64,000 bases of DNA from Scenedesmus sp. PABB004 (Eukaryota): NCBI GenBank assembly GCA_014905635.1, contig JABVCE010000027.1, forward strand, positions 1 to 64,000. The letters are read 5' to 3'. Below, piece after piece: positions 22,779 to 43,369 of this stretch. Made by a program: the position numbers and the translations under genes. Positions within the stretch are counted from its first letter, which is position 1. Each line of letters begins with the position of its first letter. The notes beneath the pieces were generated by a model. That model did not search any database. It had not been told where the DNA came from and worked only from the letters and a program-made list of their open reading frames with translations.

Positions 22779-22852
22779 TTTTTTTTTTTTGTTTTTTGTT
22801 ACAATGGGTGACCAGACAAGGACCGAGGCCCAGGGGCAGCCCACTGAAAAAA
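22779..22852 (-). mobile_element. ~75-bp LINE 3' stub
   Basis: T-rich tail plus TTACAATGGGTGACCAGACAAGG...CACTGAAAAAA, flanked by duplicated GCTCCAACGGGC(T). Confidence 0.9.
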
Positions 22853-23534: not shown

Positions 23535-24025
23535 ATCCCGGCTCTGACCTTCACGCTCCATCCGCTGCGCCACCCCGGTGGTTCATCGCATCGAGACGCT
23601 CAGTGCTTTCGTTCCGTGCGTCAGCGCCAAGTCTGCGACACCGCGCGAAGCCGGCAAGCCCAGCCATCTGCTGCGGCCCGAGCCCGAGCTTCGAGGGGAC
23701 GCCCTCCAGCGCTCCGTGTCTTCCAGACGCGCTTTGGTGACTCAGCTGAGTCGCTCACGCACGCGCGCACCGCCCCGGCAAGGCGGTAGCCTGACAGCAG
23801 CAGCCGGCATCCTTGCCTGCCGCGTGAGCTGCCCCTGTGCAGCCCGCGAGCGCCGCGCCACGCGCGTCAGTTCAGCGGTTTGAAGCAGCTCTCATCGCGG
23901 CGCGCGCCGCGTGTACTCGAGCGCTTCCACTCAAGTCTTCGCCGCACTGCTCTGCCCGCCCGCAGGCGCCTACGGACTACGGACGCGCCCGGGCCACGGC
24001 TGCAGTCCTACAGGCTACAGACATC

Positions 24026-27000: not shown

Positions 27001-28570
27001 CACCGACACGTCTGGCAGCAGCATCGTCGAGCCTACCAGCTACGACGAGGCCATCAACTCCCCGCAGGCGGCAGACTGGATCGCCGCCATGGCTGAGGAG
27101 CTGGCCTCTCTCCACGCCAACCGTACGTGGGAGCTGCAGACCAAGCCGCCCGGGGTCAAGGCCATTCCATGCAAGTGGGTCTTCACGCTCAAGCGCGACG
27201 CCGCCGGCAACATCGAGCGCTTCAAGGCGCGGCTGGTCATCAAGGGCTTTCACCAGCGCGCCGGCATCGACTACAACGACGTGTTCAGCCCCGTCATCAA
27301 GTACCAGACCTTCCGCGCGCTGATGGCCGCCGCGGCCGCGCACGACTGGGAGGTCAGGCACTTGGACATCAAGACTGCCTTCCTCAACGGCCACCTTGAA
27401 GAAGAGGTGTGGATGCAGCAGCCACCCGGCTCTGGTGAGCACGGCTCTGTGCTCGCCTGCCGCCTGCGGCGCTCGCTCTACGGCCTCAAGCAGGCGCCGC
27501 GCGTGTGGAACCAGCGGCTGCACGCCGAGCTGGTTGCCATGGGTTTTGCCCAGACCGCGGCTGACCCCTGCGTGTACTACCTCTACAAGGAGGGCTCCTT
27601 CATCATCCTGCTCGTTTACGTCGACGACATCCTGGTCGTCACGCCGCACGCTGACCTGGCCGCGCGCTTTACCGCGCGCCTGCTCAATGCGTTCGAGGGC
27701 CGCGACCTCGGCCCCGCGAGCTGTTTCCTCGGCATGACCATCGAGCGCAACCGCGCCGCGCGCACCATGAAGCTCTGCAACCCGAGGCTGATCTACGGGA
27801 TGCTGGAGCGCTTTGACATGGGCGACGTTAAGCCCCGCGGCCTGCCCATGCAGGCGGGCCTGCACCTCTCCAACACCAGCGGCGAGCCCCTCAACACCGA
27901 GGAGTTCCACTACTCTGCGCTGGTCGGCGCTGCTATGTACCTCGCCACCTCGCTGCGCCCCGACATCGCGCACACTGCGAGCGTGCTGGCGCGTTTCATG
28001 GCCAAGCCCACCATCGTGCACTGGCAGGCAGCCAAGGGGCTGCTGCGATACCTCGCAGGCACGGCTGAGCTGGGCATCAACTACTCGGGCGGCCCCGCGG
28101 GCCTGCACCTGGTCGGTTACACCGACGCAGACTACGCGGGCTGCCCCGACACGCGCCGCTCCACCTCCGCCTTTGTGTTCACCATGGGCGGCGGCGCTGT
28201 CTCCTGGTGCAGCCAGCGGCAGAAGACCGTCTCGGTCTCCACGGCCGAGGCTGAGTATGTGGCTGCCGCTGCCGCGGTCAAAGAGGCCCTTTGGCTGCGC
28301 AACCTGCTGCGTGAGCTGGGCTCGCGCAACGCCAACACCATCAGCATCTGGGCCGACAACCAAGCAGCCATCAAGCTGCTGCACAACCCCATCAGCTCAG
28401 CCCGCACCAAGCACATTGACGTCGCGTACTGCTTTGCGCGCGAGCGCGTCGTGCGCGGGGAGGTGAGCTTTGCCTATCTGCCAACCGCTGACATGGTCGC
28501 CGATGTGCTGACCAAAGGGCTGCCCGAGGTCAAGCACAAGGCGTGCTGCGCGGGCATGGGCATGGGCTAG
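24026..28570 (+). CDS. Copia gag-pol polyprotein, uninterrupted
   Basis: CNYCRKIGHTKDQC knuckle; WFTDSGATQH; WHARYGH..CPTC..LRSDNGGEY..NGKAER; VYVDDILV; YTDADYA..AEAEY; first ATG of ORF 23837..28570. Confidence 0.95.
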   Translation: MADPEGVALGRAGAPLAPNAADMAADQRAYVATVTRKPNPTILADDGSNFFEWQDERHGELIMHNLEAVLTDPDHPASVRIHAALKTTVSAVVKGEFHTYRTTADVWAALEEQNAEIASARTGDSLEQLATITFNPSSGMPDYIKRAKALRTKLAKVDFQVEDHIMITHLLRGLRRAPEYTFTCESIGKDLARGQITLQEVYQTLLRKNAWDGNDGDSSSSKGYAGNRALYAAAEHGGGGRPFRPAPAGAGGGGGNAASRAPKLFCNYCRKIGHTKDQCRKLKNKPGGPPGGPPGGGAPGSGPPNGGASGGAPGGSGPSGGGHARGGFSKFNGQSGKSSHGGNHGGGGNNAGLNVAWMATGVAPAPRDDREWFTDSGATQHMCCSREAFFELRPSGGVVHTASGETIEIKGIGNIFITIPNERVFALFNVLYVPELAANLLSLSKVTDMGYSVMMKGAATLIYSDDDTLPVLRAQRSANGVCSFICDYVPSLENLKSLCYEPVSLLTLHDTESECRLWHARYGHAGCDRIARIARDDLAVNFPLSASTVKDYGASHICPTCAMVKSSERPFKPTGPNNFGPGELLHTDVGDTGVRSAGGSRYYVTLIDDATGFSFFVPLASKSYVTSFLKETIPLIETATGNRVKVLRSDNGGEYNSTELHAYLATKGISHQFTTPYSPASNGKAERLNRTLRESAVAMLKAAGLPKTVWAEAFHTANFLRNVLPTDGKSKTPWELFFGTKPDASRLRVFGCRAYVHTPAALRTKLEPSAQPGVFLGYPSFGVSTTDGWRVRLDNGKTVTSRHVRFDESDLPGRARTTAGATDANLVSSPPSSPLVIGSGVPLLPADNTGAGGSLSPSSSGAAAGDAGDAGDAAGDPGDAGDTAGALCSSESGNLSSISSYSSASDSFVSAGDSFGDSGDSPGQAPSSSGHSPSSGGNAARLIPGQSLVTAPRRSARIAARSAVPVQPPAIPGQPRADAFPVVEQPQSALLTTDTSGSSIVEPTSYDEAINSPQAADWIAAMAEELASLHANRTWELQTKPPGVKAIPCKWVFTLKRDAAGNIERFKARLVIKGFHQRAGIDYNDVFSPVIKYQTFRALMAAAAAHDWEVRHLDIKTAFLNGHLEEEVWMQQPPGSGEHGSVLACRLRRSLYGLKQAPRVWNQRLHAELVAMGFAQTAADPCVYYLYKEGSFIILLVYVDDILVVTPHADLAARFTARLLNAFEGRDLGPASCFLGMTIERNRAARTMKLCNPRLIYGMLERFDMGDVKPRGLPMQAGLHLSNTSGEPLNTEEFHYSALVGAAMYLATSLRPDIAHTASVLARFMAKPTIVHWQAAKGLLRYLAGTAELGINYSGGPAGLHLVGYTDADYAGCPDTRRSTSAFVFTMGGGAVSWCSQRQKTVSVSTAEAEYVAAAAAVKEALWLRNLLRELGSRNANTISIWADNQAAIKLLHNPISSARTKHIDVAYCFARERVVRGEVSFAYLPTADMVADVLTKGLPEVKHKACCAGMGMG

Positions 28571-28985
28571 GGGCATCGCGCGTGCGTGGGAGCTGTGCAA
28601 ACCGCTTCGCGCGCTGCGTGGTGTGTGTTGGTTGATTACACTCACTTCTCTCGTGCGTGCTGCCTGCAATGCAGCCCACGTGGGAGTGTTGAAGGTCCTG
28701 GGCTGTCTGGTCTGCTTGCAGGCCAGCCCGCTGCAGCAGCAGCGCCCTCGCGCGCCCACGCGTGCGCGCGTGCGCTGCTGAGCTGTTTCAGCAAGAGTTT
28801 CACTGCGAGAGCCGGGGGCTCAGAACTCCAGTGGAGTACACACCACCGTGAGCAGAAGGGTGAACACGAGAAGTTCCCAGCCTGCCGCGTGCCCTATAAA
28901 GGCTCCGCGTGCCACCGGCGCTTGTAACGAAGCACTCTGCCGCACCCAATCAGCGCTCTCGCGATCACAACACCACCGCGCAACA

Positions 28986-29663
28986 CGCGCTGCGCCGCCG
29001 AGGTCCGCCGCCGGCGGCCGCGCCGCGCCGCGGGCCGCGCGCCGCCCGCGCGCGCGCCGCTCGGCGGCGCCGCGGCGCAGCGCTGCCGGGCGCCGTTTCC
29101 CCTGCCCCGCCGCCCCTGCGGAGCGGAGGTGCGGGGCTCCAACGGGCTGCCCCGGCACGCGCTGCGCCGCCGAGGTCCGCCGCCGGCGGCCGCGCCGCGC
29201 CGCGGGCCGCGCGCCGCCCGCGCGCGCGCCGCTCGGCGGCGCCGCGGCGCAGCGCTGCCGGGCGCCGTTTCCCCTGCCCCGCCGCCCCTGCGGAGCGGAG
29301 GTGCGGGGCTCCAACGGGCTGCCCCGGCACGCGCTGCGCCGCCGAGGTCCGCCGCCGGCGGCCGCGCCGCGCCGCGGGCCGCGCGCCGCCCGCGCGCGCG
29401 CCGCTCGGCGGCGCCGCGGCGCGGCGATGCCGTGCGCCGTTTCCCCTGCCCCGCCGCCCCTGCGGAGCGGAGGTGCGCGGCTCCAACAGGCTGCCCGGCC
29501 ACGGGCTGCGCCGCCGAGGTGCGCCGCCGGCGGCCGCGCCGCGCCGCGGGCCGCGCGCCGCCCGCGCGCGCGCCGCTCGGCGGCGCCGCGGCGCAGCGCT
29601 GCCGGGCGCCGTTTCCCCTGCCCCGCCGCCCCTGCGGAGCGGAGGTGCGGGGCTCCAACGGGC
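28986..29663 (+). repeat. 172-bp satellite, segment 6 (contains one divergent monomer)
   Basis: About 4 monomers; substitutions clustered at ~29420-29521. Confidence 0.95.
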
Positions 29664-29798
29664 TTTTATTTTTTGTTTTTTGTTACAATGGGTGAGCTTT
29701 TTTCAGTGGGCTGCCCCTGGGCCTCGGTCCTTGTCTGGTCACCCATTGTAACAAAAAAAAAAAAAAAAAAAAGGCCCAGGGGCAGCCCACTGAAAAAA
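29664..29798. mobile_element. LINE 3' stub (minus) interrupted by a second LINE 3' stub (plus, 29694-29772)
   Basis: T-tail-TTACAATGGGTGA | GCTTTTTTCAGTGGG...CATTGTAAC-poly(A) | GGCCCAGGGGCAGCCCACTGAAAAAA. Confidence 0.88.
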
Positions 29799-30154
29799 GC
29801 TCCAACGGGCTGCCCCGGCACGCGCTGCGCCGCCGAGGTCCGCCGCCGGCGGCCGCGCCGCGCCGCGGGCCGCGCGCCGCCCGCGCGCGCGCCGCTCGGC
29901 GGCGCCGCGGCGCAGCGCTGCCGGGCGCCGTTTCCCCTGCCCCGCCGCCCCTGCGGAGCGGAGGTGCGGGGCTCCAACGGGCTGCCCCGGCACGCGCTGC
30001 GCCGCCGAGGTCCGCCGCCGGCGGCCGCGCCGCGCCGCGGGCCGCGCGCCGCCCGCGCGCGCGCCGCTCGGCGGCGCCGCGGCGCAGCGCTGCCGGGCGC
30101 CGTTTCCCCTGCCCCGCCGCCCCTGCGGAGCGGAGGTGCGGGGCTCCAACGGGC
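29799..30154 (+). repeat. 172-bp satellite, segment 7
   Basis: About 2 monomers. Confidence 0.95.
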
Positions 30155-30206
30155 TTTTTTTTTTTGTTTTTTGTTACAATGGGTGACCAGACAAGGACCG
30201 AGGCCC
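30155..30206 (-). mobile_element. LINE 3' stub, tail-proximal part (split by the gypsy insertion; remainder at 43020-43044)
   Basis: Same stub as 22779-22852; continues as GCCCAGGGGCAGCCCACTGAAAAAA after 43019. Confidence 0.9.
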
Positions 30207-30406
30207 TGACGCACCAGATGAGCGACCCGTCGGATGAGCGCTGAGCGCCCCCGCTGCTGCTGCTCTGCCCTCACGCAACACACACCTGCGAGGCGCACAC
30301 ACGCGGCAGTTGACCCCAACTGCCCAGTTCAGGCCGCACCCGCTGGCTGTAGCGCGTGCGCGCAGTGACCAGGCCTGAGCGCTGCGGCCAGTCCAGCCGC
30401 TGCACA
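30207..30406 (-). repeat. Repeat A, terminal copy (200 bp)
   Basis: TGACGCACCAGATG...CCGCTGCACA; same as 30960-31159. Confidence 0.95.
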
Positions 30407-30410
30407 GGAT

Positions 30411-30957
30411 AGGGATTGCCCCACCCGGGATGCTCGCGGTCGGCTGCCCGACCCAGCACTCTGCTCTGGCGCGCCGCGGTCGCGATCGCTTCCTTTGCTT
30501 GCTGGCTCCCCCTGTGGCGTGCCCAGTGCTCGCGTCGACCTCTGCCCGCTCGCGGCGTGCGGCTGGGACTGTCGGGCGCGGTGGTTACCGTTGGCTGGTG
30601 CTCGACTGGGTTCTGGGGGGCGCTCGTCCCTCGCGGGGCGCGCCTAAGTTCACTCAGCGAGCGCGCAGCCAAGGGCGAACCCTGCCCCGTCAGCAAGGTC
30701 GCACTGGTTGCGAATCGGTGTGTAACCCCCACTCGGCCAGCACGCCTTGCAATGGCGCCTGCCGCTGCACAAAAGGCCTCAGACTAGGCCCCGCCACACA
30801 CAGCAGAGAGCACGGTCGCTGCCGTGCGCGGTCACCCGCGCTGCAGTACATGCCCCGGTGACCCCGCTGCTGCGCGCGCATGCAAGCCCACCAGTGCTCA
30901 GTCCGGCCGGCCCCAGGCCTAGCCTCCATCGGGCAGCAGCCCCCATCGGTGCTGACA
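30411..30957 (-). repeat. Repeat B, internal copy (547 bp)
   Basis: AGGGATTGCCCCACCC...GGTGCTGACA; same as 42473-43019. Confidence 0.95.
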
Positions 30958-30959
30958 GC

Positions 30960-31159
30960 TGACGCACCAGATGAGCGACCCGTCGGATGAGCGCTGAGCG
31001 CCCCCGCTGCTGCTGCTCTGCCCTCACGCAACACACACCTGCGAGGCGCACACACGCGGCAGTTGACCCCAACTGCCCAGTTCAGGCCGCACCCGCTGGC
31101 TGTAGCGCGTGCGCGCAGTGACCAGGCCTGAGCGCTGCGGCCAGTCCAGCCGCTGCACA
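30960..31159 (-). repeat. Repeat A, internal copy (200 bp)
   Basis: Separated from repeat B by the 2-bp spacer GC. Confidence 0.95.
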
Positions 31160-31473
31160 ACCCCCCAGCAATCACGCACGAGGTGAGGAGGCGGGATTGC
31201 TCAAAACGCGGGTGCTGGCAGCAGCGCTCGCAATGCTGCCAAGAGCACAACACACACATGACAAAGGCCCTGCAGCGGCGGCACGCACGCTGCTGGAACC
31301 AGGCACACCAGGCATTGGCACACGCACACCGCGCGGGGCAGATTCACCCGCTCCCCGCACATGCACATGCGCGCGCCCACGCGCCTGATCCCTCGCTGCA
31401 GTTGCCAACTGCCCCAACTGCCAGAGCTGGGCAGGCTGCAGCGCCCGACCGAAACTGTCCCCACTGCAGCTGC

Positions 31474-32658
31474 TCAGCGCAGCCTCTTGAGCTCAGACAT
31501 CTGGCTCGCCATGACAAAGGCCATCTGCTCAAACGTCTTCAAGTGACTGTTGTGCTGCTGCAGCATCTGCTGCACCTGCTCCTCCGTATACATCTGCGGT
31601 GCTGCCGCCTGCGTCTGCGGCGCCAGCTGCAGCATCTGCGCGGGCTGCGCCGGCAGGGCAACAAGCTGGTTCTGCCCCTGGCTGCTCTGCTCCTGCTGGC
31701 TGACCTGCTGCGGCGGTGGCGCACCGCCCTGACGCTGCCTCTGCACACTGCGCTGCGTCTGGTCACTGCTCTGGACAAAGTCACGCTGCAGCCGCCGCTG
31801 CTGCTCGCGCTGCGCGTATTCCATCGGCTGGCTGCCCTGCGCGCGTCTGCCGCGCTGCTGCGGCTCAGAGCGCCGCGGCGCCTGGCGGTCCGCGGGTCTG
31901 CCCTGGCGCTGGCCACTGGGCTCCTGGCTGCGCCGCGGGCGCTCCGTCCAGCGCCGAACGCCCGCTGGGAAGCAAAGGAGCTGGCTGAAAAGCCGATGCT
32001 GCCGCGACGTGATCTCACGGCAGTTGCTGCACTCCTTTGTGTCATGCGCGCAGGGCCCGTGCAGCTCGCACCAGGTGCGCCGGCCCTTGAAGCAGGCGTG
32101 CTCCTTGTAGCTGCCGCCTGTCTGCTGCTCCAGCAGCTCCCGCGCGGCCTGTGGTCCGCTGACCCGGCCGGCCCGGTAGTCCTCCAGCAGCTGCCAGGCT
32201 TTGGCCTCATACGGCTGCTGCTGGCTCTGGGCGCCAAGCTGGCTGTTGCGCCCCGAGCGCTCACCCTGCGCCGCAGGGCTGCACCCCCGCGCGGAGCGCT
32301 CTGCAGGTCCCTGGTCGGGGTCGTGAGGGCGCCGGCCGTGGCGGTTGCGGCTGCGGCTCCTGCTCCGGTTGCCTCGCCACGTCTGCAGGTCCGGCTGCTC
32401 CTCTCCCACGTCTTGAGGTGGCGGGCGGTCCGTGTGCTTGGAGCTCCCGCCGCTGTTCTGGCTGTGGCTGCAGTTGCGGTCGCTCGGCTCCTCCGCTGCC
32501 TCCGGGCTGGCCACATAGCCATCGTCGCCGCCGCTGCCGAGGCGTGCCAGCAGCTGTGCCGACAGGCCCCGCTGCTCATCGTTGCTCGTCCCCGGGGCGG
32601 CTTCCGGCATCTCCATCTCCTCATCCCCAAAGTCCAGCAGCTCCTCTTCACCCTCCAT
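31474..32658 (-). CDS. Extra ORF3 of the gypsy element: low-complexity protein with a Cx2Hx4Hx4C-type zinc knuckle
   Basis: ATG at 32658 (MEGEEELLDF), acidic N-terminus, WCELHGPCAHDTKEC, Q-rich C-terminus; open for ~394 codons. Confidence 0.65.
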   Translation of the reverse strand: MEGEEELLDFGDEEMEMPEAAPGTSNDEQRGLSAQLLARLGSGGDDGYVASPEAAEEPSDRNCSHSQNSGGSSKHTDRPPPQDVGEEQPDLQTWRGNRSRSRSRNRHGRRPHDPDQGPAERSARGCSPAAQGERSGRNSQLGAQSQQQPYEAKAWQLLEDYRAGRVSGPQAARELLEQQTGGSYKEHACFKGRRTWCELHGPCAHDTKECSNCREITSRQHRLFSQLLCFPAGVRRWTERPRRSQEPSGQRQGRPADRQAPRRSEPQQRGRRAQGSQPMEYAQREQQRRLQRDFVQSSDQTQRSVQRQRQGGAPPPQQVSQQEQSSQGQNQLVALPAQPAQMLQLAPQTQAAAPQMYTEEQVQQMLQQHNSHLKTFEQMAFVMASQMSELKRLR

Positions 32659-32800
32659 TGCCTGAGCAGCGGCAGTGTCGGCACGGGAGGGCAGTGTCAG
32701 CACTCGCCGGTTTGGCGGCTTGGCACACAGCGGACTGACGCGTGAGCACCCCCCAACCCCCAGCCAGGCCTCCATCTCTCCCGGTGCGGCATCAGCCTGA

Positions 32801-35800
32801 TCAGTGGCTGGGTCCTGCGGTCGTGTCGCCAAAGGCGCCGTCGCGTGGCAAGCGCACGCCTGCGGGCAGGAGCGTGTCCTGCGGGGTGAGGATCTTGGTG
32901 AGCTCCGCTGTGGCATAGCGGTACACGTCCCCATCCTCCCAGCACACATCAAAGTACGCCGGCCGACGCTGCTCGCCCATGAAGTGCGCGCGGCCCCAGA
33001 AGAGCCTGCGCTGGCCCGTCTGCCGATCCACAAAGTGCTGGCGCACCAGCCTGCCGTGCAGCTGCTTGGCTGCCTCGTCACGCTCGCGCATTGCGCGGTC
33101 TGGGTAGAGGTTCGCCCCCTCGTCGCGCTGCTCCCGCGCCTGGCGCTGGCGCACTGCGGCCTGCAGCTGCTGCTGCGTCACGCCGTCAGCGACGCACCTC
33201 GGGCACATCCAGTCGCCCTCGGGCACTTGATCCAGGCTCGGCTCCAGGCAGTGTTGGTGCCAGCCCGCGTCACAGTGATCGCACAGCAGCATCTGGTTCG
33301 CTGTGTGTGACTCCAGGTGCCCGCACGCCTCGCAGCTCGCCTCCTGCGGCTGCTCTGCCAGGGCTGGGTCAAGTGTGGGGTCGATCCCTAGCAAGTGGCA
33401 GGGCGCACACTGTGAAATGTGGCGGTCGATCTTGCGTCCGCAGCGGCCCTGCAGCATGAGGCGGCCGCTGGGCCTGACCTCCAGCACGCGCAGAATCACC
33501 GGGCGCGCGCGTGGCTGCAGCGCGCTGTACGCGTGAGTGTACGCGACATACACAAAATCACCTTGTTTGAACGTGGGCGTTCTTGGCTGGATCTCCCCGC
33601 TTCGCAGTCGCGCGTAGCGCAGCGTGTCTCGCTGCTGCGCGATCTCCAGGTTCGCCATGGCCTCAGGTGCCAGGCGCTCGACCAGCTGCCTGCGTGCGGC
33701 CAAGTCGGCGGCGGCCAGGTCAGGTGCGTCGAGGTCCAGCGGCTGGCTCAGCCGCTCCATCACTGCAGGCGGCACAATTGGCGCGCGTGCATAGAGCAGC
33801 TCATATGGCGTGAGGCCGGTGCTGCGCTGCGGGCTGCAGCGGTAGCCCAGCAGCAGCCAGGGCACGTGCATGTCCCAGTCACGCACTGCCTGCCGCTGCA
33901 GGCACGTTTTCTCCAGGGCTGCCTTCACAATATGAACAGATTTCTCCGCCGCGCCATTGGCAGCGGGATGGTTGGCTGAAGTGGGGCGCGAGTCAATGAG
34001 GCAGTCCAGCAGCAGCTGCTGGAAAGCACCCTGCCACTCGCCCCCGCGGTCGTGCACGACCTCGGCACACGCGCCAAAACGCGCGAGCACGTTGTGCAGG
34101 AAAGCATAGGCAGTGCACTCTGGCGTTTTCTCCGCAATAGGAATGGCCTCAATGTTCTTACTAAAGTGCTCCACACACACCAGGATGTAGCGGTGCCCCC
34201 GCTCTGAGCGCGGGAAAGGCCCGCACAGGTCCACGCCCCAGCGGTACATCATGCCGCGGATGGGCAGCGGCTGCAGCTCAGCTGGGCGCGCTGTAAAAGC
34301 TGCGCGGACCTGCCCGCACTCAGGGCAGCCGCCCACCAGCGAAGCCGCGTCGGCCAGCAGGCCGTGCCACCAGTGCGTGTGGTGCGCGAGTGCCGCAGTG
34401 CGGCGCACGCCAAAGTGCCCGCACCTGTCGTGGAAGCTCTTGAGCAGCTCCCGCCGTTCAGCCGGAGGGGGCACCACACGCGTGCTGTTGTCGGGCATGA
34501 GTCGCAGCAACTGCCCGCCCTGCCAGCGGTAGTACGCGCGGCGCTTGGCCACTCTGCAGCGCTCAGCCGCGTTTGTGCCCGCTGGGAAGTCTCCGTTCTG
34601 CAGCAGGTGCAGGGCGGTTGCGTCGGCCCAGATGTCACTGCTGCTGCCCTGCAGGGCGTCCTGCTCCGCTGCTGCCGCCAGCGCACATAGCACGCCGTAC
34701 GGCTTGCTCCCAGCAGCCTTGCTGGCTCCCATCTCGGGCACAAGTCCTGCCACTGGTTGTGTGCTGCCATGCTCCGCCCAGGCCCGGGCAATCGCCCAGA
34801 GTCCCGCCAGGCAGGCTGCATCGATCGCCTCGCCCAGGGCACGGCGGCGATCTCTGTCCGACACGCCAGGCGCGGCTGTTGCGCCCTCCGCATAGCCGAG
34901 CGCGCGCTCACGCTCGACTGTCAGGGGCTGGTCCCACGTGCCGTCTGCTGCGATCACGCTGCCCGGCTTGCCTGGCCTGAAGCTGTAGCTGTTGGGGTGC
35001 GCCATCAGCGTTGGCCAGGCTGCCATGGGCTGCCCTGGCACATTGCAGGGGTAGCGTGGTGGGAAATCAGGGTGCTTGACCGGCTGCTCCCGCCGCCCAG
35101 GCTCCAGTATTTGTGAGACCGTGAGGCCCGGCGGCCTCTGCACCTGCGCCGCAGCAGCGGCCAGTTGGGCAGGTGAGCATGCGTTCGTCCAAAACGCTCG
35201 CACGCGGTGCGCGCGGCTCCCAAACTGCGCTGCGTCCAGCACTGTCGGCTGGCCCAGCGCGTCACAAATCACTTTGAAGTCCTCCTCCGCAATGCGGTTG
35301 TCGCTGTGCCATTGCACTGGCACGTTCTCCAGCAGGTAGCAGGGCGGCTGGTCTGGTTGCAGCTGCTGCAGCGTGCCGATCAGGCGCACAATCTCGGTGA
35401 GCAGGCCTGATCGCGCCCCGCGCAGGCCCGCACCCGACCCAGCTGTGCTGAGGTCCTGGCAGGGCCATCCGCCCACCACGAGCCAGGGTTGGCGTTGCAG
35501 CGATGCTCCTTCTTGCACCAGGTGCCATGTCGTGATCTCGCGCACGTCTTGCGGGAGAGAGAACATGCCCTGCAGGGCAGACGTGGGCAGCAGGTCAGGA
35601 TACAGCGCTGTTAGCTGCTGCACTCTGTGCGCTGCTATCGCCCGGCTGGTGGGGTTGATGTCCACATACAGGTACTTGTGGATGCGTTTCCCTCCACGCA
35701 GGGCCATCTCCAGGCCCGCACACAACCCCCCAAACGCGTCCACAAGGACCAGGCCTTGCGTCGCTGCCGGAAAGAAACTCGCCGCCACGCTGGCGGTGGC

Positions 35801-37930
35801 CAGACCTGTGGCCCGGCGCACCCCAAATGCATCACGCGGCCCCGCGTGCGCACCTCCCGCGGGCGCGGCGGCTTGAGCCTGTGCTGCCGGCAGGTGTGGC
35901 ACCGCCGCTTGCACCCATGCGCGCGCCGAGCGCGCCAGTTGCCTTGCTGCCAGCTGGGCCGCGTAGGAGGCGTCATCCGGCAGTTGGTCCGCCGCGTCTG
36001 TGAAGGAGCCGTTATTGCCTGCCAGCAACGCGGCGGCGTCGGGCAGGAAAGAGTCAAGCCGGGTCTCACCAGCCGTCGCGCGCTCCAGAAGCTGTGCCTG
36101 CAGCTGCGGCTGGCTGGGCGGCGCCAGGGCTGTGCCCAGCAGCAGCGCCCCTGCCGCGGTGCTGTTCTGCGGCTTGGCCGCTGCGCGCTGCTGCTCCAGG
36201 AGCTCCCACGTGTACTCCGTCGTGTCCGGCGTGCCATCAGCCTGCAGCACTGCCGGCTGCAGCTGATACATGGGCTCCCTTGTGCGGTCCAAGCGCGCAC
36301 CTGCCGCGTCCACCGTTGTGGCTCGTGGGTGCCTGCTTGGCACATCTGCCACGTTGCTTTTGCCGGCCTTGTGGACCAGGGTGAACTCGTAGTCCTGCAG
36401 CGACAGCACCCAGCGCGCGTGCTGCCCTGTGGGCTCCTTGGCTGCGAGTAGCCAGAGCAGCGGGCGGTGGTCGGTGTGCAGGTGGAAGTGGGGCCCCTGC
36501 AGGTATGGGCGGAACGTCTTGACGCCCCATACTGCCGCCAGCGCCTCACCTTTCCAGGCCTCGTACCGCCGCTCGTGCTCGTTGAGCGAGCGAGAGGCAC
36601 AGGCGACCATGTACTCCCCCCCGTTCTGGTCTCTCTGGTTGAGCACGGCAGAGATGCCGTGAGGGCTCCAGTCCGTATACAGGTGGTATGGCCGTGAGGG
36701 GTCTGGGTGGCGCAGCACCGCAGTGGGTGAGGTGAGCGCATCGCGCAGCCTGTCAAAGGCAGCCGCCTGCTCTGGTCCCCACACGAAGCGCGTGCCTTTC
36801 TTGAGCAGTGCGTTGAGAGGCGCCGCAATAGCCGAGTACTCAGGCACATAGCAGCGATAAAAGCCCAGCACGCCCAGGTAGCTGCGCACTTGATCAGCCG
36901 AGGTTGGCGGCGCCAGCTCGCGCATTGCGGCGACCTTCGCCTGGTCAGGCTGCATGCCACTCTCACTGACCAGGTGGCCCAGGAAGGGCATGGAGTCGCT
37001 GCACAGCACCGTTTTGGATGGATGCGCGCGCAGCCCGACCGTCCGGAAACGGCCAAACAGCAGGCGCAGGCACCTCAGGTGGTCCTCAAATGTCTTAGTG
37101 TAGATACATATGTCATCCACAAAGACCACAGCAAAGTCTTTGAGCCCTGCTGCGCGCAGTTCGTGTTCCATTATTCTCTGGAAGATGGCGGTGGCGTTCA
37201 CGTGCCCAAAGGGCAGGCGCGTGAAGCTGTACAGCCTGCCTTCCCACCAGAAGCACGCGTAGCGCTGTGACGCCTCATCCAGCGGGATGTTGAAAAACCC
37301 GGACCTGCAGTCGACTTTGCTGCGCCACGTAGCACCTGCCATTCGCCGGAACAGCTCCTCTGGCAGAGGCAGTTTGTACTTGTCAATCACGGCGTTGGCG
37401 TTGATCGCCCGCCCATCGTAGCAGAACCTCTTGTCAGTGAGGGTGCCATCAGGCGCTCGCTTCGCCGCCATGACGATGGGGCAGGCATGTGTCATGCCAT
37501 GTGTGCTGACCTCGCGGATCACGCCCGCGTCAAGCATCTCCCGCACTTTCTCCCTTCCAATGTCCAGGTCCCTGGGGCTGGGCTTGCGCTCCGGGCAGAT
37601 GATGGGCTCCTCTGTCTTCATGCGCAGCTGCGCAGGGCCCAGCTCGCCCTTGTAGCCCACCAAGTCCTTCATCTCATACGCGAACACATCTTTGTGCTCG
37701 AGCAGCACCTGCTGCAACTGCTCTTTCTGCTCTGCTGTGAGCTCTGGGTGGTTCCCATGTATCCATTTGTGCTCTGGGTCCTGTTCCCAGCGGTCAGAGA
37801 GCTCCTCTGTCTCCTGCTCCCCTCCCGCAGTGTACGCCTCCAGCGGCGTCTGGCCAATCGCCGCTGCTGCAGGGTCCCGATCCTTGCCCCTCTGGCTCTC
37901 ACGCCTGCGGCTGCCTGCCGCCGACGCGAA
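32801..37930 (-). CDS. Gypsy pol: RT, RNase H, C5 cytosine DNA methyltransferase, integrase, PHD, Tudor-like (5' limit set at the inferred frameshift site)
   Basis: LPFGHVNA, FVDDICIY; YTDWS..EALAAVW..TDHRPL; DAFGG, GGWPCQDLS, ENV, RVRAFW; H..GHFG..CPEC, VDLCGP, HDRGGEW, NGAAEK; CEAC..CDHC..H..C..WMCPRC. Confidence 0.93.
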   Translation of the reverse strand, partial: FASAAGSRRRESQRGKDRDPAAAAIGQTPLEAYTAGGEQETEELSDRWEQDPEHKWIHGNHPELTAEQKEQLQQVLLEHKDVFAYEMKDLVGYKGELGPAQLRMKTEEPIICPERKPSPRDLDIGREKVREMLDAGVIREVSTHGMTHACPIVMAAKRAPDGTLTDKRFCYDGRAINANAVIDKYKLPLPEELFRRMAGATWRSKVDCRSGFFNIPLDEASQRYACFWWEGRLYSFTRLPFGHVNATAIFQRIMEHELRAAGLKDFAVVFVDDICIYTKTFEDHLRCLRLLFGRFRTVGLRAHPSKTVLCSDSMPFLGHLVSESGMQPDQAKVAAMRELAPPTSADQVRSYLGVLGFYRCYVPEYSAIAAPLNALLKKGTRFVWGPEQAAAFDRLRDALTSPTAVLRHPDPSRPYHLYTDWSPHGISAVLNQRDQNGGEYMVACASRSLNEHERRYEAWKGEALAAVWGVKTFRPYLQGPHFHLHTDHRPLLWLLAAKEPTGQHARWVLSLQDYEFTLVHKAGKSNVADVPSRHPRATTVDAAGARLDRTREPMYQLQPAVLQADGTPDTTEYTWELLEQQRAAAKPQNSTAAGALLLGTALAPPSQPQLQAQLLERATAGETRLDSFLPDAAALLAGNNGSFTDAADQLPDDASYAAQLAARQLARSARAWVQAAVPHLPAAQAQAAAPAGGAHAGPRDAFGVRRATGLATASVAASFFPAATQGLVLVDAFGGLCAGLEMALRGGKRIHKYLYVDINPTSRAIAAHRVQQLTALYPDLLPTSALQGMFSLPQDVREITTWHLVQEGASLQRQPWLVVGGWPCQDLSTAGSGAGLRGARSGLLTEIVRLIGTLQQLQPDQPPCYLLENVPVQWHSDNRIAEEDFKVICDALGQPTVLDAAQFGSRAHRVRAFWTNACSPAQLAAAAAQVQRPPGLTVSQILEPGRREQPVKHPDFPPRYPCNVPGQPMAAWPTLMAHPNSYSFRPGKPGSVIAADGTWDQPLTVERERALGYAEGATAAPGVSDRDRRRALGEAIDAACLAGLWAIARAWAEHGSTQPVAGLVPEMGASKAAGSKPYGVLCALAAAAEQDALQGSSSDIWADATALHLLQNGDFPAGTNAAERCRVAKRRAYYRWQGGQLLRLMPDNSTRVVPPPAERRELLKSFHDRCGHFGVRRTAALAHHTHWWHGLLADAASLVGGCPECGQVRAAFTARPAELQPLPIRGMMYRWGVDLCGPFPRSERGHRYILVCVEHFSKNIEAIPIAEKTPECTAYAFLHNVLARFGACAEVVHDRGGEWQGAFQQLLLDCLIDSRPTSANHPAANGAAEKSVHIVKAALEKTCLQRQAVRDWDMHVPWLLLGYRCSPQRSTGLTPYELLYARAPIVPPAVMERLSQPLDLDAPDLAAADLAARRQLVERLAPEAMANLEIAQQRDTLRYARLRSGEIQPRTPTFKQGDFVYVAYTHAYSALQPRARPVILRVLEVRPSGRLMLQGRCGRKIDRHISQCAPCHLLGIDPTLDPALAEQPQEASCEACGHLESHTANQMLLCDHCDAGWHQHCLEPSLDQVPEGDWMCPRCVADGVTQQQLQAAVRQRQAREQRDEGANLYPDRAMRERDEAAKQLHGRLVRQHFVDRQTGQRRLFWGRAHFMGEQRRPAYFDVCWEDGDVYRYATAELTKILTPQDTLLPAGVRLPRDGAFGDTTAGPSH

Positions 37931-40900
37931 AGCTGTTGGTTTGCAGCTGCTGTGCTGCTCCCCATGCCTGCGCCTGCGCCTCTGCGTGCGAGGGCGGCAG
38001 TGGCGCGCGTGTGTCGGCCCACGGCATGCGCAGTGCGCTGCTGCCTGGCGGCGCCAGGTGCGTGCTGAGCTGGCCAGCGGCGTGCCCCGTGGCCGCAGCG
38101 CCGGCGATCAGCAGCAGCAGCAGCGCGCACTGCAGGGGCAGCGCCTTACGCACAAAGCCGCGCGTGAAGGTGCGACGCCACATCTTGAACTTTCTCGGCG
38201 CATTGCACTCTGTGCCGTCAGGCGCGATGGGCGGCCTGAGGCAGCGCACATCGCCCGTCTCCATAGAACGGTAGCGCCAGCGCCCGATGCGCACGTAGAG
38301 GTCTGGTGCGCGCGCCCAGGGCACGTGCTGCTTCAGCCCTGCGCGCACGTGGCGCCAGGTGCCGCTCAGCCGGGCTCGCAGCCCGCTGCTCAGGCAGCAC
38401 GCGAGAACGCGCGGCACCCAGAGCGCGGCTGCGCAGAGCCAGCCCACCTTGTGGAGGATGCTGCGCACTGCCGTGTAGATCAGCGGCAGTCTGGGCGCAG
38501 GGCGGGGCCGGTGCCAGGTGTGGCTCAGGAGCTTGGTGGCGCTGGCGTAGGCCTCCTCCGCGCCCTGGCCCACCACGCCCAGCGCGAGCACCGCGCCCGC
38601 GCTGATGAGGGGCGCCTGGCTGAGGAGCATCAGGACCGGCAGCACCAGCAGCACCAGCAGCGCGTCCCGCGCGGTGTTCAGCGCCTTGAGCGCGCGCTGC
38701 AGCCAGCTGCAGCTGGGCTCGCTTTTGGCGTGGCCCTGCTCCTCGCCCTCGTTCTCCTCTGCGCGCAGCGTGCAGGCCGGCATCGGCTCCGTGCATGCGG
38801 CGGGCGTGCGTTCCGCCGGCTCGCTGCGCGCGGTGAGCCGCACCTGCATGCAGGCGAGCTTCGCCCCGTTGGTGGCCGGGCGCCCGCTGATGTAGTAGAA
38901 CTGGCTGTTGAACGGCAGCACGAAGCCGCTCACTTTGTCGATGATGTCCCGCCCCAGCACAGCGCCGTACATGCCGTACGCGCTTGGGCTGTCCACGACC
39001 AGGAAGCCGTCTGGCAGCTCCAGGCTGACCTCGTCCTCGGTGCCGTGGCCCAGGATGACCGCCACCGGCTCAGTGCGGCCGATGATGCTGGTCGTGGGCT
39101 GGCCCTCGATCGTGCTGACTGGTGGCAGCTGCTCCGGCAGCAGCCGGTACACGTGCAGGCCCATCTCCTGCGCCAGGCGCTGGTTGATGATAGAGGGGAC
39201 GCAGCCAGAGTCGGTGGCGGTGTTCTGCATCTGCATCACGCGCCCGCCGCTGGTGCGCACCATGGGAAGCTGCGGGCCATCAAACTTGATCATCGTCTGG
39301 CGCTGCCCTGTGCTGCGCTTGAACGCTGCCATCTGCTGCTCAAAGCTCGTGCTGCTGCCTGCGACGGCGTGCAGCTCCTCCAGCGCCTGCGCGCTTCTGC
39401 CATCCTCAGCCAGCTGCGCCAGCGCCACGGGCGCGTTGGTCGCTGCTGCGCGCGGCTGGCTGTTCTCCATCTCCTGGCCCTGCATCATCTCCTGGATCTT
39501 GCCCAGCTGGCTGGCTGCCAGCGGCTTCTCGCTCTCAAACACGATCTTGACCTTGAACTGCGGCGGCACCGGTTCGGCAGACGGCCTGCTCAGGGCCGGC
39601 TCCATGCCGCTGCTCAGCGGCGGCGCCGTGCGCGGCTGCGCGTTGTCCGCCGGCAGGAAGCTGCAGGGCATCACGCTCCTGCGCGCGCCGCGCGTGGCCG
39701 CGCCTGCGCTCAGCGAGTGCTCACCGATCTCGCAGAGCGAGCCCGCCGGCATGTGCTGCCAGTTGCTCAGGCTGCTGTTCTCCCAGCGCTCGCTGCCCTG
39801 CGGCTGGTGCAGCGGCGGGGTCTCATACTCGGGCCAGAGGGCCGCCGCGGCGACTGGCCCGCGCGCCTGCTGCTGGCGCTGGTGCTGCGCGGGCGTGGAG
39901 CCCCGCGCGCCGCTCTCACCAGACCAGGCCGGCTGGATCTTCAGCTCCTTGCAGCGCCTGAGGTAGTGCTGCACCGCGCCGGGCTCAGCGTTCCTGCCAG
40001 GCGCCCAGTTGGCAGGCGCCTTGTTGGGCTGGTCGTACCAGCAGACTGCGTGGCCTGGCCCAAAGCGGCAGTAGGGGCAGGGCGCGGGCGCGCGGTTGGT
40101 GCCACCGCTCGTGTGCGGGCGCAGCTCTGGCGGCGGCAGCGCGCGCTGCTGCGCCGCGCCCGCCGGCTGCATCGGCCGCGCCTGCTGCCAGTGGTGGTGG
40201 CCGCGCGGCTGGCTGTAGCCGTAGTACGACTGCCGCGTGTCGTAGCCGTCGGCGTAGGCGCCTGCGGGCGCGCTGTAGGGCATGTCAGCGCGCACGTCCT
40301 GGCTCGCGAAGGCAGCGCCCGCCAGGGCGTGGTGCGGCGCGCTGGCGGCCCAGTTGCCCGGGCGCTGCCCTGCGCCGCGCCGATCTCCCACCTGCCTTGG
40401 GCCCTGCACCTCGCGCGAGCCGCCGCCGCGCTCCTTGCTGCCCTGCACCTTGGCGTCCATGGAGCCGAGGAAATCGTGCCCCGCCTTGCGGAAGAGGCTG
40501 GCGCGCAGCGTGGACTGCGTGACTGCCTGGTGCTTCTCCGCGCACTCCAGCACGTTGTCCAGCGTCAGGCTGCCCAGGCCCTGCGCGATCACCTGCTGCT
40601 GCACCATGGCCCTGCAGGCGCCGCTGCTCAGCCCTGCGATGAACACCTGCGCCGCGCTGTCGGGCATGATGTGCAGCTCGCAGCGCAGCGTCCGGACGGC
40701 CTGCCGGATCCGCTGCGCGTACTCCTGCAGCGTGGCGTCGCCCTGCTGCATGGTGAAGAACTCGCTCACCTGCTCCTGCGTGGCGATGCAGAAGCGCAGC
40801 TCCATGATCAGCAGCAGCCGCTCCACCACGTACAGCACTGGCGTCCAGCGCTTGCCGGGCTGGTCGCCCGTGGTGGTGTAGATGACGGTCGCGCTGGCCT

Positions 40901-41834
40901 TGAGCTCCTGTGCGGGCGTGGGAGCGGGCGGTGCCGTTGGCGGCGCCGCTGGCGCGGGCCTGCCGGCCGCCTCGCCGCTCGGCTCGCCCGCGTGCTCGCC
41001 GCCCTTCGGGGGGCACGCGTCAGCAGCGCCCCGGTCCTGTTTCACCTGGACGCCCGTCGGCCTGATGGGCGGGACGTCGCCCATTCGCACCTGGTCCATC
41101 TCCATCTGGCTGACCACGAGGCCCCGCTCCAGCGCCTTGTCGAGGACGTCCCCGACGCGGTCTGTGTAGGCCTCGTGCAGCATCTTGTTGTGCCGCTCCT
41201 GGTCCTGTCTCGGGCCGAGCGCCAGCCGCACCTCCTCGGCAGAGGGGCGCGCCCAGAGGTAGCGCCCGTTCTCTGCCGCCAGGCCGTGGTCGGCGAGCGC
41301 CGCGCGGATCTTGAGGAGCACCTGGGCGGGCTCGCTCTCCGGCTCGACCTTCACCAGCAGCTGGTCCACGAACTCCGCGAGCGACATCACGGCGCGCCCG
41401 CTCTGCGTGCTCTTGCTGTGCGCGGCGCCGATCGCCGCCCGCGCCTCGTTGATCCACTGCTGCGCCGGCTTGCCCGGCTGCCCCGCCCAGAGCTGCTCAC
41501 CGTTGTGGCTGCCCGCCAGCTTGCGGGCGCTGAAGCGCGGCCCGCGCGGCGGGCTGCCGCGCCCGAGCTGGCCGTAGCTGCTGAAGTTGCGCAGCATGTC
41601 GTCCTCGTCGCTGTCGCTGCCGCAGTCGCTGCCGCTCTCTGCGGCGGGGTCCTGCGGGGCAGGCGGGTCAGCAGGGCTGGGCTGCCACGCGCCGCTCGGC
41701 GCGCCGCCCGTGCCCTGCTGGGCTGGCCGTAGGGCTGCTGCCCTGGCCTGTTGCGCTATGCGCTGGTAGGTGTCGCTGAGACTGCTGCCCTGGGGCAGCC
41801 GTGCGCTGCTGCGCGTTCGCCCCCAGCCGCTCAC
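37899..41834 (-). CDS. Gypsy gag-protease ORF with hydrophobic C-terminal extension; true start uncertain
   Basis: FFTMQQGDATLQEYAQRIR (gag-like); CPYCRFGPGHAVC; protease ATDSGC..AVLGRDII; 1311 open codons. Confidence 0.8.
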   Translation of the reverse strand: MSGWGRTRSSARLPQGSSLSDTYQRIAQQARAAALRPAQQGTGGAPSGAWQPSPADPPAPQDPAAESGSDCGSDSDEDDMLRNFSSYGQLGRGSPPRGPRFSARKLAGSHNGEQLWAGQPGKPAQQWINEARAAIGAAHSKSTQSGRAVMSLAEFVDQLLVKVEPESEPAQVLLKIRAALADHGLAAENGRYLWARPSAEEVRLALGPRQDQERHNKMLHEAYTDRVGDVLDKALERGLVVSQMEMDQVRMGDVPPIRPTGVQVKQDRGAADACPPKGGEHAGEPSGEAAGRPAPAAPPTAPPAPTPAQELKASATVIYTTTGDQPGKRWTPVLYVVERLLLIMELRFCIATQEQVSEFFTMQQGDATLQEYAQRIRQAVRTLRCELHIMPDSAAQVFIAGLSSGACRAMVQQQVIAQGLGSLTLDNVLECAEKHQAVTQSTLRASLFRKAGHDFLGSMDAKVQGSKERGGGSREVQGPRQVGDRRGAGQRPGNWAASAPHHALAGAAFASQDVRADMPYSAPAGAYADGYDTRQSYYGYSQPRGHHHWQQARPMQPAGAAQQRALPPPELRPHTSGGTNRAPAPCPYCRFGPGHAVCWYDQPNKAPANWAPGRNAEPGAVQHYLRRCKELKIQPAWSGESGARGSTPAQHQRQQQARGPVAAAALWPEYETPPLHQPQGSERWENSSLSNWQHMPAGSLCEIGEHSLSAGAATRGARRSVMPCSFLPADNAQPRTAPPLSSGMEPALSRPSAEPVPPQFKVKIVFESEKPLAASQLGKIQEMMQGQEMENSQPRAAATNAPVALAQLAEDGRSAQALEELHAVAGSSTSFEQQMAAFKRSTGQRQTMIKFDGPQLPMVRTSGGRVMQMQNTATDSGCVPSIINQRLAQEMGLHVYRLLPEQLPPVSTIEGQPTTSIIGRTEPVAVILGHGTEDEVSLELPDGFLVVDSPSAYGMYGAVLGRDIIDKVSGFVLPFNSQFYYISGRPATNGAKLACMQVRLTARSEPAERTPAACTEPMPACTLRAEENEGEEQGHAKSEPSCSWLQRALKALNTARDALLVLLVLPVLMLLSQAPLISAGAVLALGVVGQGAEEAYASATKLLSHTWHRPRPAPRLPLIYTAVRSILHKVGWLCAAALWVPRVLACCLSSGLRARLSGTWRHVRAGLKQHVPWARAPDLYVRIGRWRYRSMETGDVRCLRPPIAPDGTECNAPRKFKMWRRTFTRGFVRKALPLQCALLLLLIAGAAATGHAAGQLSTHLAPPGSSALRMPWADTRAPLPPSHAEAQAQAWGAAQQLQTNSFRVGGRQPQA

Positions 41835-42054
41835 CGTGGGTGATTGCGCTGGGCCTCCTTGCGGGGCTCAGCGGTGGCCACGGTGGGCAGGCTCCTGGCC
41901 CTCTGGGCCGCTTGTTCCGGCTTTGCGGCCCCTTGGGCTTCTCCCAGGCGGGGCCTGTGGCCTTGGCTCCGTGGGCTGGGCGCGGTGCGCGGCTCCCTTG
42001 TTCCCTTTTGGGCACGGCGCCTGGCCGGTTCGCGCGCCCTCTGGGCGCTGTGCT

Positions 42055-42298
42055 CCTGCTCCGCTCGGCCCTCTGGGCGCGAGCTGGCTCCTGCTCCGCT
42101 CGGCCCTGTGGGCTCGAGCTGGCTCCGCTCCGCTCGGCCCTGTGGGCTCGAGCTGGCTCCTGCTCCGCTCGGCCCTGTGGGCTCGAGCTGGCTCCGCTCC
42201 GCTCGGCCCTGTGGGCTCGAGCTGGCTCCTGCTCCGCTCGGCCCTCTGGGCTCGAGCTGGCTCCGCTCCGCTCGGCCCTGTGGGCTCGAGCTAGCTCC
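42055..42298. repeat. ~34-35 bp tandem repeat (~7 copies) in the gypsy 5' leader
   Basis: GCTCCGCTCGGCCCTGTGGGCTCGAGCTGGCTCC(T) units. Confidence 0.9.
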
Positions 42299-42472
42299 CG
42301 CGCCCTTTGGGCGTCTCCTCACGTGTTGGTCGGGCGATCCACGTCGGCCGCCACGTGCGGCTCGACGGCTTGTCGCCCGGCCTGGCTGGGCGCTCCTGCG
42401 CCCTCCTTGCTCTCCCCCGAGCGCAATGCGCCGCGCGGCGCGGCGCTTACCTGAGCAGCGGCCCCCCAGAAC

Positions 42473-43019
42473 AGGGATTGCCCCACCCGGGATGCTCGCG
42501 GTCGGCTGCCCGACCCAGCACTCTGCTCTGGCGCGCCGCGGTCGCGATCGCTTCCTTTGCTTGCTGGCTCCCCCTGTGGCGTGCCCAGTGCTCGCGTCGA
42601 CCTCTGCCCGCTCGCGGCGTGCGGCTGGGACTGTCGGGCGCGGTGGTTACCGTTGGCTGGTGCTCGACTGGGTTCTGGGGGGCGCTCGTCCCTCGCGGGG
42701 CGCGCCTAAGTTCACTCAGCGAGCGCGCAGCCAAGGGCGAACCCTGCCCCGTCAGCAAGGTCGCACTGGTTGCGAATCGGTGTGTAACCCCCACTCGGCC
42801 AGCACGCCTTGCAATGGCGCCTGCCGCTGCACAAAAGGCCTCAGACTAGGCCCCGCCACACACAGCAGAGAGCACGGTCGCTGCCGTGCGCGGTCACCCG
42901 CGCTGCAGTACATGCCCCGGTGACCCCGCTGCTGCGCGCGCATGCAAGCCCACCAGTGCTCAGTCCGGCCGGCCCCAGGCCTAGCCTCCATCGGGCAGCA
43001 GCCCCCATCGGTGCTGACA
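42473..43019 (-). repeat. Repeat B, terminal (5') copy (547 bp)
   Basis: Same length and apparently same sequence as 30411-30957; no repeat A next to it. Confidence 0.95.
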
Positions 43020-43044
43020 GCCCAGGGGCAGCCCACTGAAAAAA

Positions 43045-43207
43045 GCTCCAACGGGCTGCCCCGGCACGCGCTGCGCCGCCGAGGTCCGCCGCCGGCGGCC
43101 GCGCCGCGCCGCGGGCCGCGCGCCGCCCGCGCGCGCGCCGCTCGGCGGCGCCGCGGCGCAGCGCTGCCGGGCGCCGTTTCCCCTGCCCCGCCGCCCCTGC
43201 GGAGCGG
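43045..43207 (+). repeat. Last satellite monomer; array boundary
   Basis: Satellite ends at GGAGCGG, then unique sequence. Confidence 0.93.
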
Positions 43208-43369
43208 TTGGTCCCTGTGCCCGCTCAGGGCGCGCCCACTCGGAGAGAAGCGGCGGCTGAAGCGCGCCCACCTGTGCGGGTGAACTTGGGGGAACACGGG
43301 CGGTTTACAGGACACGCCTCGCGACGCAGGCGCTGCCGCTGCCGCTTCACCGCCATCCTGCCTTTCCTC

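Follow-up and report, generated by a model that had tools for sequence, protein, structure and literature searches.

Can a retrotransposon with a DDE integrase carry its terminal repeats in the split order known from tyrosine-recombinase elements and, if so, how would such a copy be made? The question is raised by a retrotransposon on contig JABVCE010000027.1 of Scenedesmus sp. PABB004 (assembly GCA_014905635.1). Positions 1 to 64,000 of its forward strand were analysed, and this whole 64-kb stretch is called the window below. In the textbook classification, split direct repeats go with tyrosine recombinases, and paired long terminal repeats (LTRs) with DDE integrases; the present element is of the integrase type and has a clear target-site duplication (TSD), yet its layout is split. 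It is a real, young and apparently intact retrotransposon of the Ty3/gypsy type. From the sequence we propose that the canonical two-LTR DNA was inserted in circularly permuted form, after being opened at a palindrome, presumably by the integrase. We give this reading a probability of about one half.

The element, its ends and its proteins

The element lies on the minus strand of the window, from 43019 to 30207 (12,813 nt), as established by repeat finding, self-BLAST and direct reading. Its order is B(547)-gag/PR-pol-ORF3-A(200)-GC-B(547)-ATCC-A(200), where A and B are the two repeats, PR is the protease and ORF stands for open reading frame. When positions are counted in the minus-strand reading, with window position 43019 as position 1, B occupies 1-547, A 11861-12060 and, after GC, B again 12063-12609, followed by ATCC and the last A at 12614-12813. 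The parts that define the layout are as follows in window coordinates (PBS, primer-binding site):

43020..43023, unstranded: 5' TSD copy, GGGC in element orientation and GCCC on the plus strand; the flank matches the stub described below up to ...CTGGGC
42473..43019, minus strand: 5' repeat B, 547 nt, starting TGTCAGCACC
42047..42298, minus strand: 34/35-nt tandem repeats, approximately 7 copies, in the 5' leader between the PBS and gag (repeat finding)
30960..31159, minus strand: internal repeat A, 200 nt, TGTGCAG...GGTGCGTCA
30411..30957, minus strand: 3' repeat B, 547 nt
30407..30410, minus strand: ATCC filler at the joint of the B end and the A start
30207..30406, minus strand: terminal repeat A, 200 nt, ending ...GCGTCA
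30203..30206, unstranded: 3' TSD copy

The two B copies are identical at 547/547 positions, with the first mismatch only from position 548, and the two A copies at 200/200. A preceding reading of the same DNA, made from its letters without database searches (the sequence-only reading), had given this layout, and every detail of it is borne out. Paired in-register LTRs are absent: the 5' end carries B alone and the 3' end carries A-GC-B-ATCC-A. Written as B-int-A-B-A, where int is the internal region, the element has the split direct repeats A1-int-B1-A2-B2 of the PAT/Ngaro form.

The termini, TGTCAGCACC...GGTGCGTCA, are of the TG...CA type and form short terminal inverted repeats. On both sides the element is flanked by parts of a ~78-bp retroposon stub with a poly(A) tail, of which an uninterrupted copy is found at window positions 29693-29771. 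Compared with that copy, the 5' flank (ending ...CTGGGC) matches at 29/29 positions and the 3' flank (beginning GGGCCTCGG...) at 51/52. The stretch common to both matches is exactly GGGC (GCCC on the plus strand); therefore the element was inserted as one unit with a 4-bp TSD, and on the ends, the duplication and the single insertion the sequence-only reading was correct. DIRS elements, to our knowledge, lack TSDs of the integrase type; the duplication here is an exact one of 4 bp. Self-BLAST found no second copy of the element in the 64-kb window.

The coding part contains the following features:

37899..41867, minus strand: gag-protease frame, 1322 aa stop to stop; the gag of relatives aligns
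40041-40079, minus strand: zinc-knuckle-like motif CPYCRFGPGHAVC in the gag-protease frame
39204-39212, minus strand: protease DSG motif in the gag-protease frame
32801..38107, minus strand: pol frame, 1768 aa
36974-37417, minus strand: reverse transcriptase (RT) domain of pol (RVT_1)
36389-36781, minus strand: RNase H domain of pol (RT_RNaseH)
~34808-35752, minus strand: DNMT3-like C5 methylase of pol (PF00145, E 4.5e-11)
33968-34471, minus strand: integrase of pol, HHCC and DDE (Integrase_H2C2 and rve)
33194-33334, minus strand: PHD finger of pol (PF00628, E 3e-9)
31474..33177, minus strand: ORF3, 567 aa stop to stop, overlapping the end of pol

The Pfam order within pol is RVT_1, RT_RNaseH, PF00145, Integrase_H2C2 with rve, and PHD finger. 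With the protease DSG motif upstream in the gag frame, this gives the Ty3/gypsy order PR-RT-RNaseH-IN (IN, integrase), with a C5 methylase inside the Pol frame as in Gypsy-DNMT3 elements. The Retrotrans_gag match of the gag-protease frame is weak (E 0.015, below the cut-off). Among solved structures, Ty3 is the best match both for RT-RNase H (E 5e-53) and for the integrase (E 5e-17); the methylase is best matched by DNMT3A, 3C and 3B (E 6e-8). An alignment with 14 relatives (15 sequences) leaves invariant the FVDD-type RT motif (of the YxDD type), the methylase motifs FGG, PCQ and ENV, and the integrase residues H1226, H1231, C1261, C1264, D1293, D1353 and E1388 (HHCC; D,D35E). The gypsy-ordered pol with an HHCC/DDE integrase had been recognised from the letters, and both the Pfam order and the match to Ty3 agree with that. 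It had also been claimed that a tyrosine recombinase is lacking, and the scan agrees: of the stop-to-stop frames of at least 90 aa on both strands, 0/77 match PF00589 or any recombinase (E <= 0.05). The methylase and the PHD finger had been overlooked, as had the polypurine tract (PPT) and the 12-nt self-priming PBS described below.

Insertion by a DDE integrase is thus supported by sequence features of several kinds: the TG...CA ends, the short terminal inverted repeats, the 4-bp TSD and the intact HHCC/DDE integrase closest to Ty3. Pfam gives no chromodomain match at the integrase C-terminus; the PHD finger is found there instead. ORF3 belongs to no Pfam family and, when 9 related loci were searched with it by tblastn, gave no match at E <= 1. 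It may be no real gene; it contains a C-x3-H-x5-H-x4-C-like motif. The element contains no TGTAA poly(A) signal.

Priming signals, the palindrome and the joints in relatives

Relatives were collected at the protein and at the DNA level. The protein search gave 187 proteins at E <= 0.001 among 7999 candidates scored, of which 120 are listed; the closest of those 120 is 61% identical, and a PF00145 match is recorded for approximately 49 of them (hand count). The named relatives in the list are Haematococcus lacustris, Tetrabaena socialis, Monoraphidium neglectum, Chlamydomonas eustigma and one 'Minisyncoccia' metagenome-assembled genome (MAG); none of the organism-named relatives listed has a recorded PF00145 match.

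The DNA of relatives comes from metagenome contigs (77 loci), with L001-L007 and L009-L012 as the full pol relatives, and from genome contigs, which added one further relative, L078. Short fragments of pol relatives (L008, L013-L016) were left out, and the other loci, mostly bacterial methylase matches, were dropped. Five contigs (L002, L004, L007, L009, L010) stop before the terminal block or show none and are uninformative on the layout. The methylase region aligns in L005, L006, L011, L012 and L078. Viral contigs gave PHD-finger matches alone.

The signals on which the proposed replication route depends are the following:

31160..31169, minus strand: polypurine-type tract GCTGGGGGGT, abutting the internal A (direct reading)
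42461..42472, minus strand: self-priming PBS GTTCTGGGGGGC, abutting the end of the 5' B (exact-complement search)
42672..42683, minus strand: predicted self-primer GCCCCCCAGAAC, B 337-348, the predicted 5' end of the genomic RNA; perfect 12-nt complement of the PBS
30948..30968, minus strand: joined-termini palindrome GGTGCGTCA-GC-TGTCAGCACC, core CAGCTG, the proposed internal integrase site (direct reading)

As in Ty3/gypsy elements, a PBS follows the 5' repeat and a PPT precedes the 3' repeat. G-run tracts are found at the site corresponding to the PPT in L005, L011, L012 and L078. In the sequence-only reading a copy of the 3' end had been seen in place of the PPT; this is not so, as the G-run PPT abuts A, and A lies between the PPT and the palindrome.

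The same reading had found no tRNA PBS after the 5' repeat. It is right that no TGG-type PBS follows B, either here or in L003 and L006, and there is no tRNA gene in the window; yet a PBS of another kind stands at that place. In the exact-complement search, B 337-348 proved to be the perfect complement of the 12 nt that follow the 5' B. The corresponding match in L006 pairs the first 11 nt after B with a site 203 nt upstream of the repeat end; in L003 it pairs 11 nt, beginning 2 nt after B, with a site ~300 nt upstream of that end. Thus all three lineages in which a B end runs into internal sequence (3/3) have a perfect complement of 11-12 nt to the predicted 5' segment of their own RNA, starting 0-2 nt after B, as in Tf1/sushi elements.

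As a background control we counted how often 15-nt windows of the internal region hold such a complement: 9/11,275 in the present element (12-mer), 0/10,301 in L006 and 16/8,323 in L003. When the 30 nt after B were compared with B by RNAduplex, 65/200 shuffles were as good; the element is GC-rich. A 10-nt complement in L001 (6507 vs 6215) was considered as a self-primer and rejected, being within chance, and no self-primer complement was found in L078.

A PBS complementary to its own repeat is the signature of self-priming of the Tf1/Tj1 type, and the sequence points to that mode here. In Tf1 and Tj1 the 5' end of the element RNA anneals to the PBS (PMC4600332). The likeness extends to the position of the PBS directly after the 5' repeat, to its complement in the same repeat ~200-300 nt before the end, and to the absence of a tRNA PBS; Tf1 and Tj1 differ in having ordinary paired LTRs.

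As canonical PPT and PBS are present, reverse transcription is predicted to be canonical, and from their positions the predicted canonical LTR is A-GC-B. Its U3 part would be A plus B 1-336, and R-U5 would be B 337-547; promoter, transcription start and R-U5 are accordingly expected to lie in the 5' B. The repeats of L003 bear on this division. Its two repeat copies show 100% identity as far as the last base of the 11-mer, beyond which the figure drops to roughly 65-70%; the switch falls exactly at the end of the 11-mer, which thus marks the boundary between the U3-derived and the R-U5-derived parts. Within L003 1-1800, the adjacent repeat units are 100% identical over 589 alignment columns and nearly identical again in the last ~45 nt; the divergent units could come from a recombinant between subfamilies or from a chimeric contig.

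The second signal is the palindrome. The internal A|B joint consists of the two inserted termini of the element linked through GC. A CA-GC-TG joint with inverted arms of 5-9 bp, 63-240 nt after the PPT, is present in 7/7 lineages whose contig includes the terminal block (the present element, L001, L003, L005/L006, L011, L012 and L078), and these reach down to ~40% pol identity. The B end reads CCCT, CACT or CCTG, with CA in 0/3 lineages; the A start is TG in 5/6. Since the palindrome is conserved and no B end is CA, it is the B start and the A end that are conserved as integrase-type ends, and the present insertion used these two.

The joint of a B end to an A start is found in two further lineages, L003 and L005/L006; a plain paired-LTR family would have no such joint. 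In L005 the internal sequence leads into PPT-A-GC-B and then re-enters A (55-nt overlap, period 825). L006, of the same family (99% identity), begins with two 824-nt units followed by internal sequence. The order in L003 is A-GC-B-A-GC-B'-internal.

Two of the relatives call for separate remarks. In L001 (1-12142) a 5.6-kb stretch from gag to pol residue ~801 is present twice at 99.93% identity, the two stretches being separated by 973 nt that contain the palindrome GGCA-GC-TGCC; this may be an internally deleted copy beside a full one, or a tandem array. L078 is a 13.5-kb contig of an algal-type retrotransposon filed in a cyanobacterial MAG, and P0070 is a Pol named after the 'Minisyncoccia bacterium' MAG; both look like eukaryotic contamination of bins. 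The genome of L078 has no second copy of the terminal block.

The proposed route and its competitors

These signals can be put together as follows. The genomic RNA would start at approximately B 337; its first ~12 nt would fold back onto the PBS and prime the minus strand in a Tf1-like manner, and the PPT would prime the plus strand. Ordinary reverse transcription with two jumps would then give a linear DNA with an A-GC-B LTR at both ends. The outer ends of this DNA would not be integrase ends, since B does not end in CA. Instead the B end would be linked to the A start, giving the ATCC joint; this could happen ahead of integration, with a two-LTR circle as the product, or only once integration has taken place. 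The integrase would cut the CA-GC-TG palindrome in the left LTR into a TG end and a CA end, and the freed ends would be inserted together with a 4-bp stagger. Since the inserted form is circularly permuted, the DNA would have passed through a stage in which it was circular or had its ends joined, and would then have been opened at one fixed internal position.

The permuted provirus, B-PBS-int-PPT-A-GC-B-ATCC-A, would still encode a complete RNA (R-U5-PBS...PPT-U3-R). The other permutation (B-x-A-GC-B-int-A) and the repeat-less product B-int-A would encode none, and this may explain why the observed form persists. The sequence-only reading had proposed a hybrid strategy; we retain its integrase-mediated insertion and its PAT/Ngaro-like topology, and replace its DIRS-like cDNA synthesis, since the PPT and the PBS are canonical.

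A precedent for the central step is known from retroviruses: the junction of two-LTR circles is a palindrome that the HIV-1 integrase cleaves, and these circles can be a source of integrated DNA (PMC1905944, PMC4372172). The likeness is that a DDE integrase cuts the palindrome of abutted ends and that the opened circle can integrate. The difference is that the retroviral palindrome is a U5-U3 ligation joint and the reaction a side path, whereas here the palindrome is encoded in the LTR, 65-240 nt from its start, and would serve the main route. A foamy virus study (PMC1180852) reportedly gives a further precedent for the cutting of the palindrome of abutted ends and for integration of the circle.

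Several points weigh against the permutation. Only a single flanked copy is available, so that the layout of the family as a whole is supported indirectly, by conserved motifs and contig joints; and the circle, the RNA ends and the integrase activity are all inferred from sequence. No flanked example was seen of the alternative permutation B-x-A-GC-B-int-A, which the model allows. The A start is TG in most lineages, as given above, and the canonical left end could thus be an integrase end. Canonical synthesis predicts identical B copies, and those of L003 differ after the 11-mer; we attribute this to two putative subfamilies or a putative recombinant. The contigs of relatives have no flanks, and an assembler walking around a repeat loop could create their joints, which leaves the full layout unproven in them; the two units of L006 are 100% identical. 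Lastly, the B end and the A start meet without any filler in L003 and L005/L006, and the ATCC filler of the present element is unexplained.

The competitor that survives best is a templated synthesis of the DIRS/PAT type, which we consider unlikely. The RNA would begin within the 5' B and end within the terminal A; with the internal A-GC-B as template, the missing ends would be rebuilt and joined, and the integrase would insert the product. Such a scheme accounts for a layout that is exactly A1-int-B1-A2-B2, as in PAT and Ngaro, and for B-to-A joints that are precise and identical in L005 and L006 (independent assemblies of one family), as expected if they are copied; the non-identical B tails of L003 also fit repeats that are not homogenised in each cycle. 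It assigns no role, however, to the PPT at the A start and the self-priming PBS at the B end, both of which suit canonical synthesis. The two B copies of the present element are identical over their whole length, including the part downstream of the predicted start, and the RT and the integrase are Ty3-like, with no tyrosine recombinase; all this argues against templating.

It is also conceivable, and in our opinion rather improbable, that the family normally has paired A-GC-B LTRs and that the present copy is the product of a single event, in which a two-LTR circle integrated aberrantly or some other rearrangement took place. A canonical LTR would have no reason to keep the site that the conserved palindrome represents in 7/7 lineages down to ~40% pol identity. 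Nor does any B end read CA (0/3). In favour of a single event are the TG at the A start in 5/6 lineages, the PBS and the PPT, which define a canonical LTR, and the fact that only one flanked copy has been seen. The B-to-A joints recur in two other lineages, and the same repeat structure is reported for KnitGypsy-Dnmt3 of Klebsormidium nitens, which has Gypsy-type domains and a DIRS-like repeat arrangement according to a figure legend (de Mendoza et al. 2018, PMC5890265, Fig. 4c); both facts speak against a single event.

An assembly artefact, with a mis-join of repeats behind the A-B-A block or behind the lack of a 5' A, is very improbable in spite of the 100% identity of the repeats, since both flanks continue one retroposon stub across an exact 4-bp duplication, a mis-join would not shift A from end to end while keeping the TSD, and the same joints are present in related contigs of other assemblies.

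Known systems, implications and surroundings

The sequence-only reading knew of no description of this combination; the KnitGypsy-Dnmt3 legend is one. A Dnmt3-like cytosine methylase within the Gypsy Pol frame and the DIRS-like arrangement of repeats are common to that element and the present one. The two are likened by description only; they differ in host, the named relatives of the present element being chlorophycean algae, and the present element has a PHD finger at the integrase C-terminus. Section 9 and the Fig. 4 legend of the 2018 paper give no TSD, PBS, PPT, palindrome or mechanism for KnitGypsy-Dnmt3. In the literature searched, the name occurs only in that paper; chlorophyte Gypsy-DNMT3-PHD elements with the split-repeat layout are not described there, and the combination of split direct repeats, integrase and Gypsy gave no matching description. 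The relevant part of a 2026 preprint gives 'Gypsy-DNMT3' for streptophytes only. The combination of layout and domains has thus been printed once already; what the present analysis adds is a self-priming PBS, a PPT and a conserved palindrome of joined termini and, from these three, a permutation model that can be tested.

Elements of the PAT/Ngaro/TOC type (DIRS order) resemble the present one in the split direct repeats A1-int-B1-A2-B2, in an internal joint that equals the joined termini, and in the circular or end-joined intermediate that this implies. The differences lie in the present element's DDE integrase without any tyrosine recombinase among the 77 frames, its 4-bp TSD, TG...CA ends and Ty3-closest RT, its methylase, which is C5/DNMT3-like and not Dam-like, and its canonical PPT and PBS.

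Large green-algal Gypsy elements with a PHD finger in Pol (Gypsy-7a_cRei, REM1) are a further likeness. Gypsy-7a_cRei of Chlamydomonas is a 15.4 kb Gypsy element with a PHD finger in Pol (Craig et al. 2022, PMC9940879); the legend to Fig. 6A of that paper speaks of 'LTR subparts', and the left LTR is given there without the last 8 bp of the right one. The difference is that no DNMT domain is among those listed there for it and that its PHD finger is placed between RNase H and the integrase.

It is tempting to extend the proposal to a whole group. We suggest, tentatively and with less confidence than for the present copy, that a green-algal DNMT3-PHD clade of Ty3/gypsy elements, perhaps including KnitGypsy-Dnmt3, obligatorily closes its two-LTR cDNA or joins its ends, and that the integrase opens and inserts this DNA at a palindrome encoded in the LTR. 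If this is true, a eukaryotic retroelement clade would normally enter its target DNA by double-end cleavage of a palindrome, which in retroviruses is a side reaction and a disputed one, and elements with an integrase would have acquired the split-repeat architecture otherwise seen only with tyrosine recombinases. It would also hint at how the DIRS/PAT/Ngaro architecture arose from LTR elements, or the reverse, as a mechanistic bridge between the two. Software that searches for paired LTRs would mis-annotate such elements, for example as DIRS or as fragments.

The surroundings of the element are repetitive. Much of the first 30 kb of the window consists of a 172-bp satellite with a G+C content of up to 89%, one array having 82 copies, and all mobile elements seen in the window sit inside this satellite:

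1-984, 6804-8037, 8322-22779, 22853-23225, 28984-29664, 29799-30155 and 43045-43344: satellite stretches
2839-6417 and 23828-28567, plus strand: two Ty1/copia-type polyprotein frames (RVT_2, rve, gag_pre-integrs, Pol_BBD)
29693-29771, plus strand, and 30155-30206 / 43020-43048, minus strand: two ~78-bp poly(A)-tailed retroposon tails with a TGTAA signal

The Ty1/copia-type frames occupy islands of lower GC within the satellite. The two retroposon tails are in opposite orientation, ~400 nt apart, and the Gypsy element inserted into one of them.

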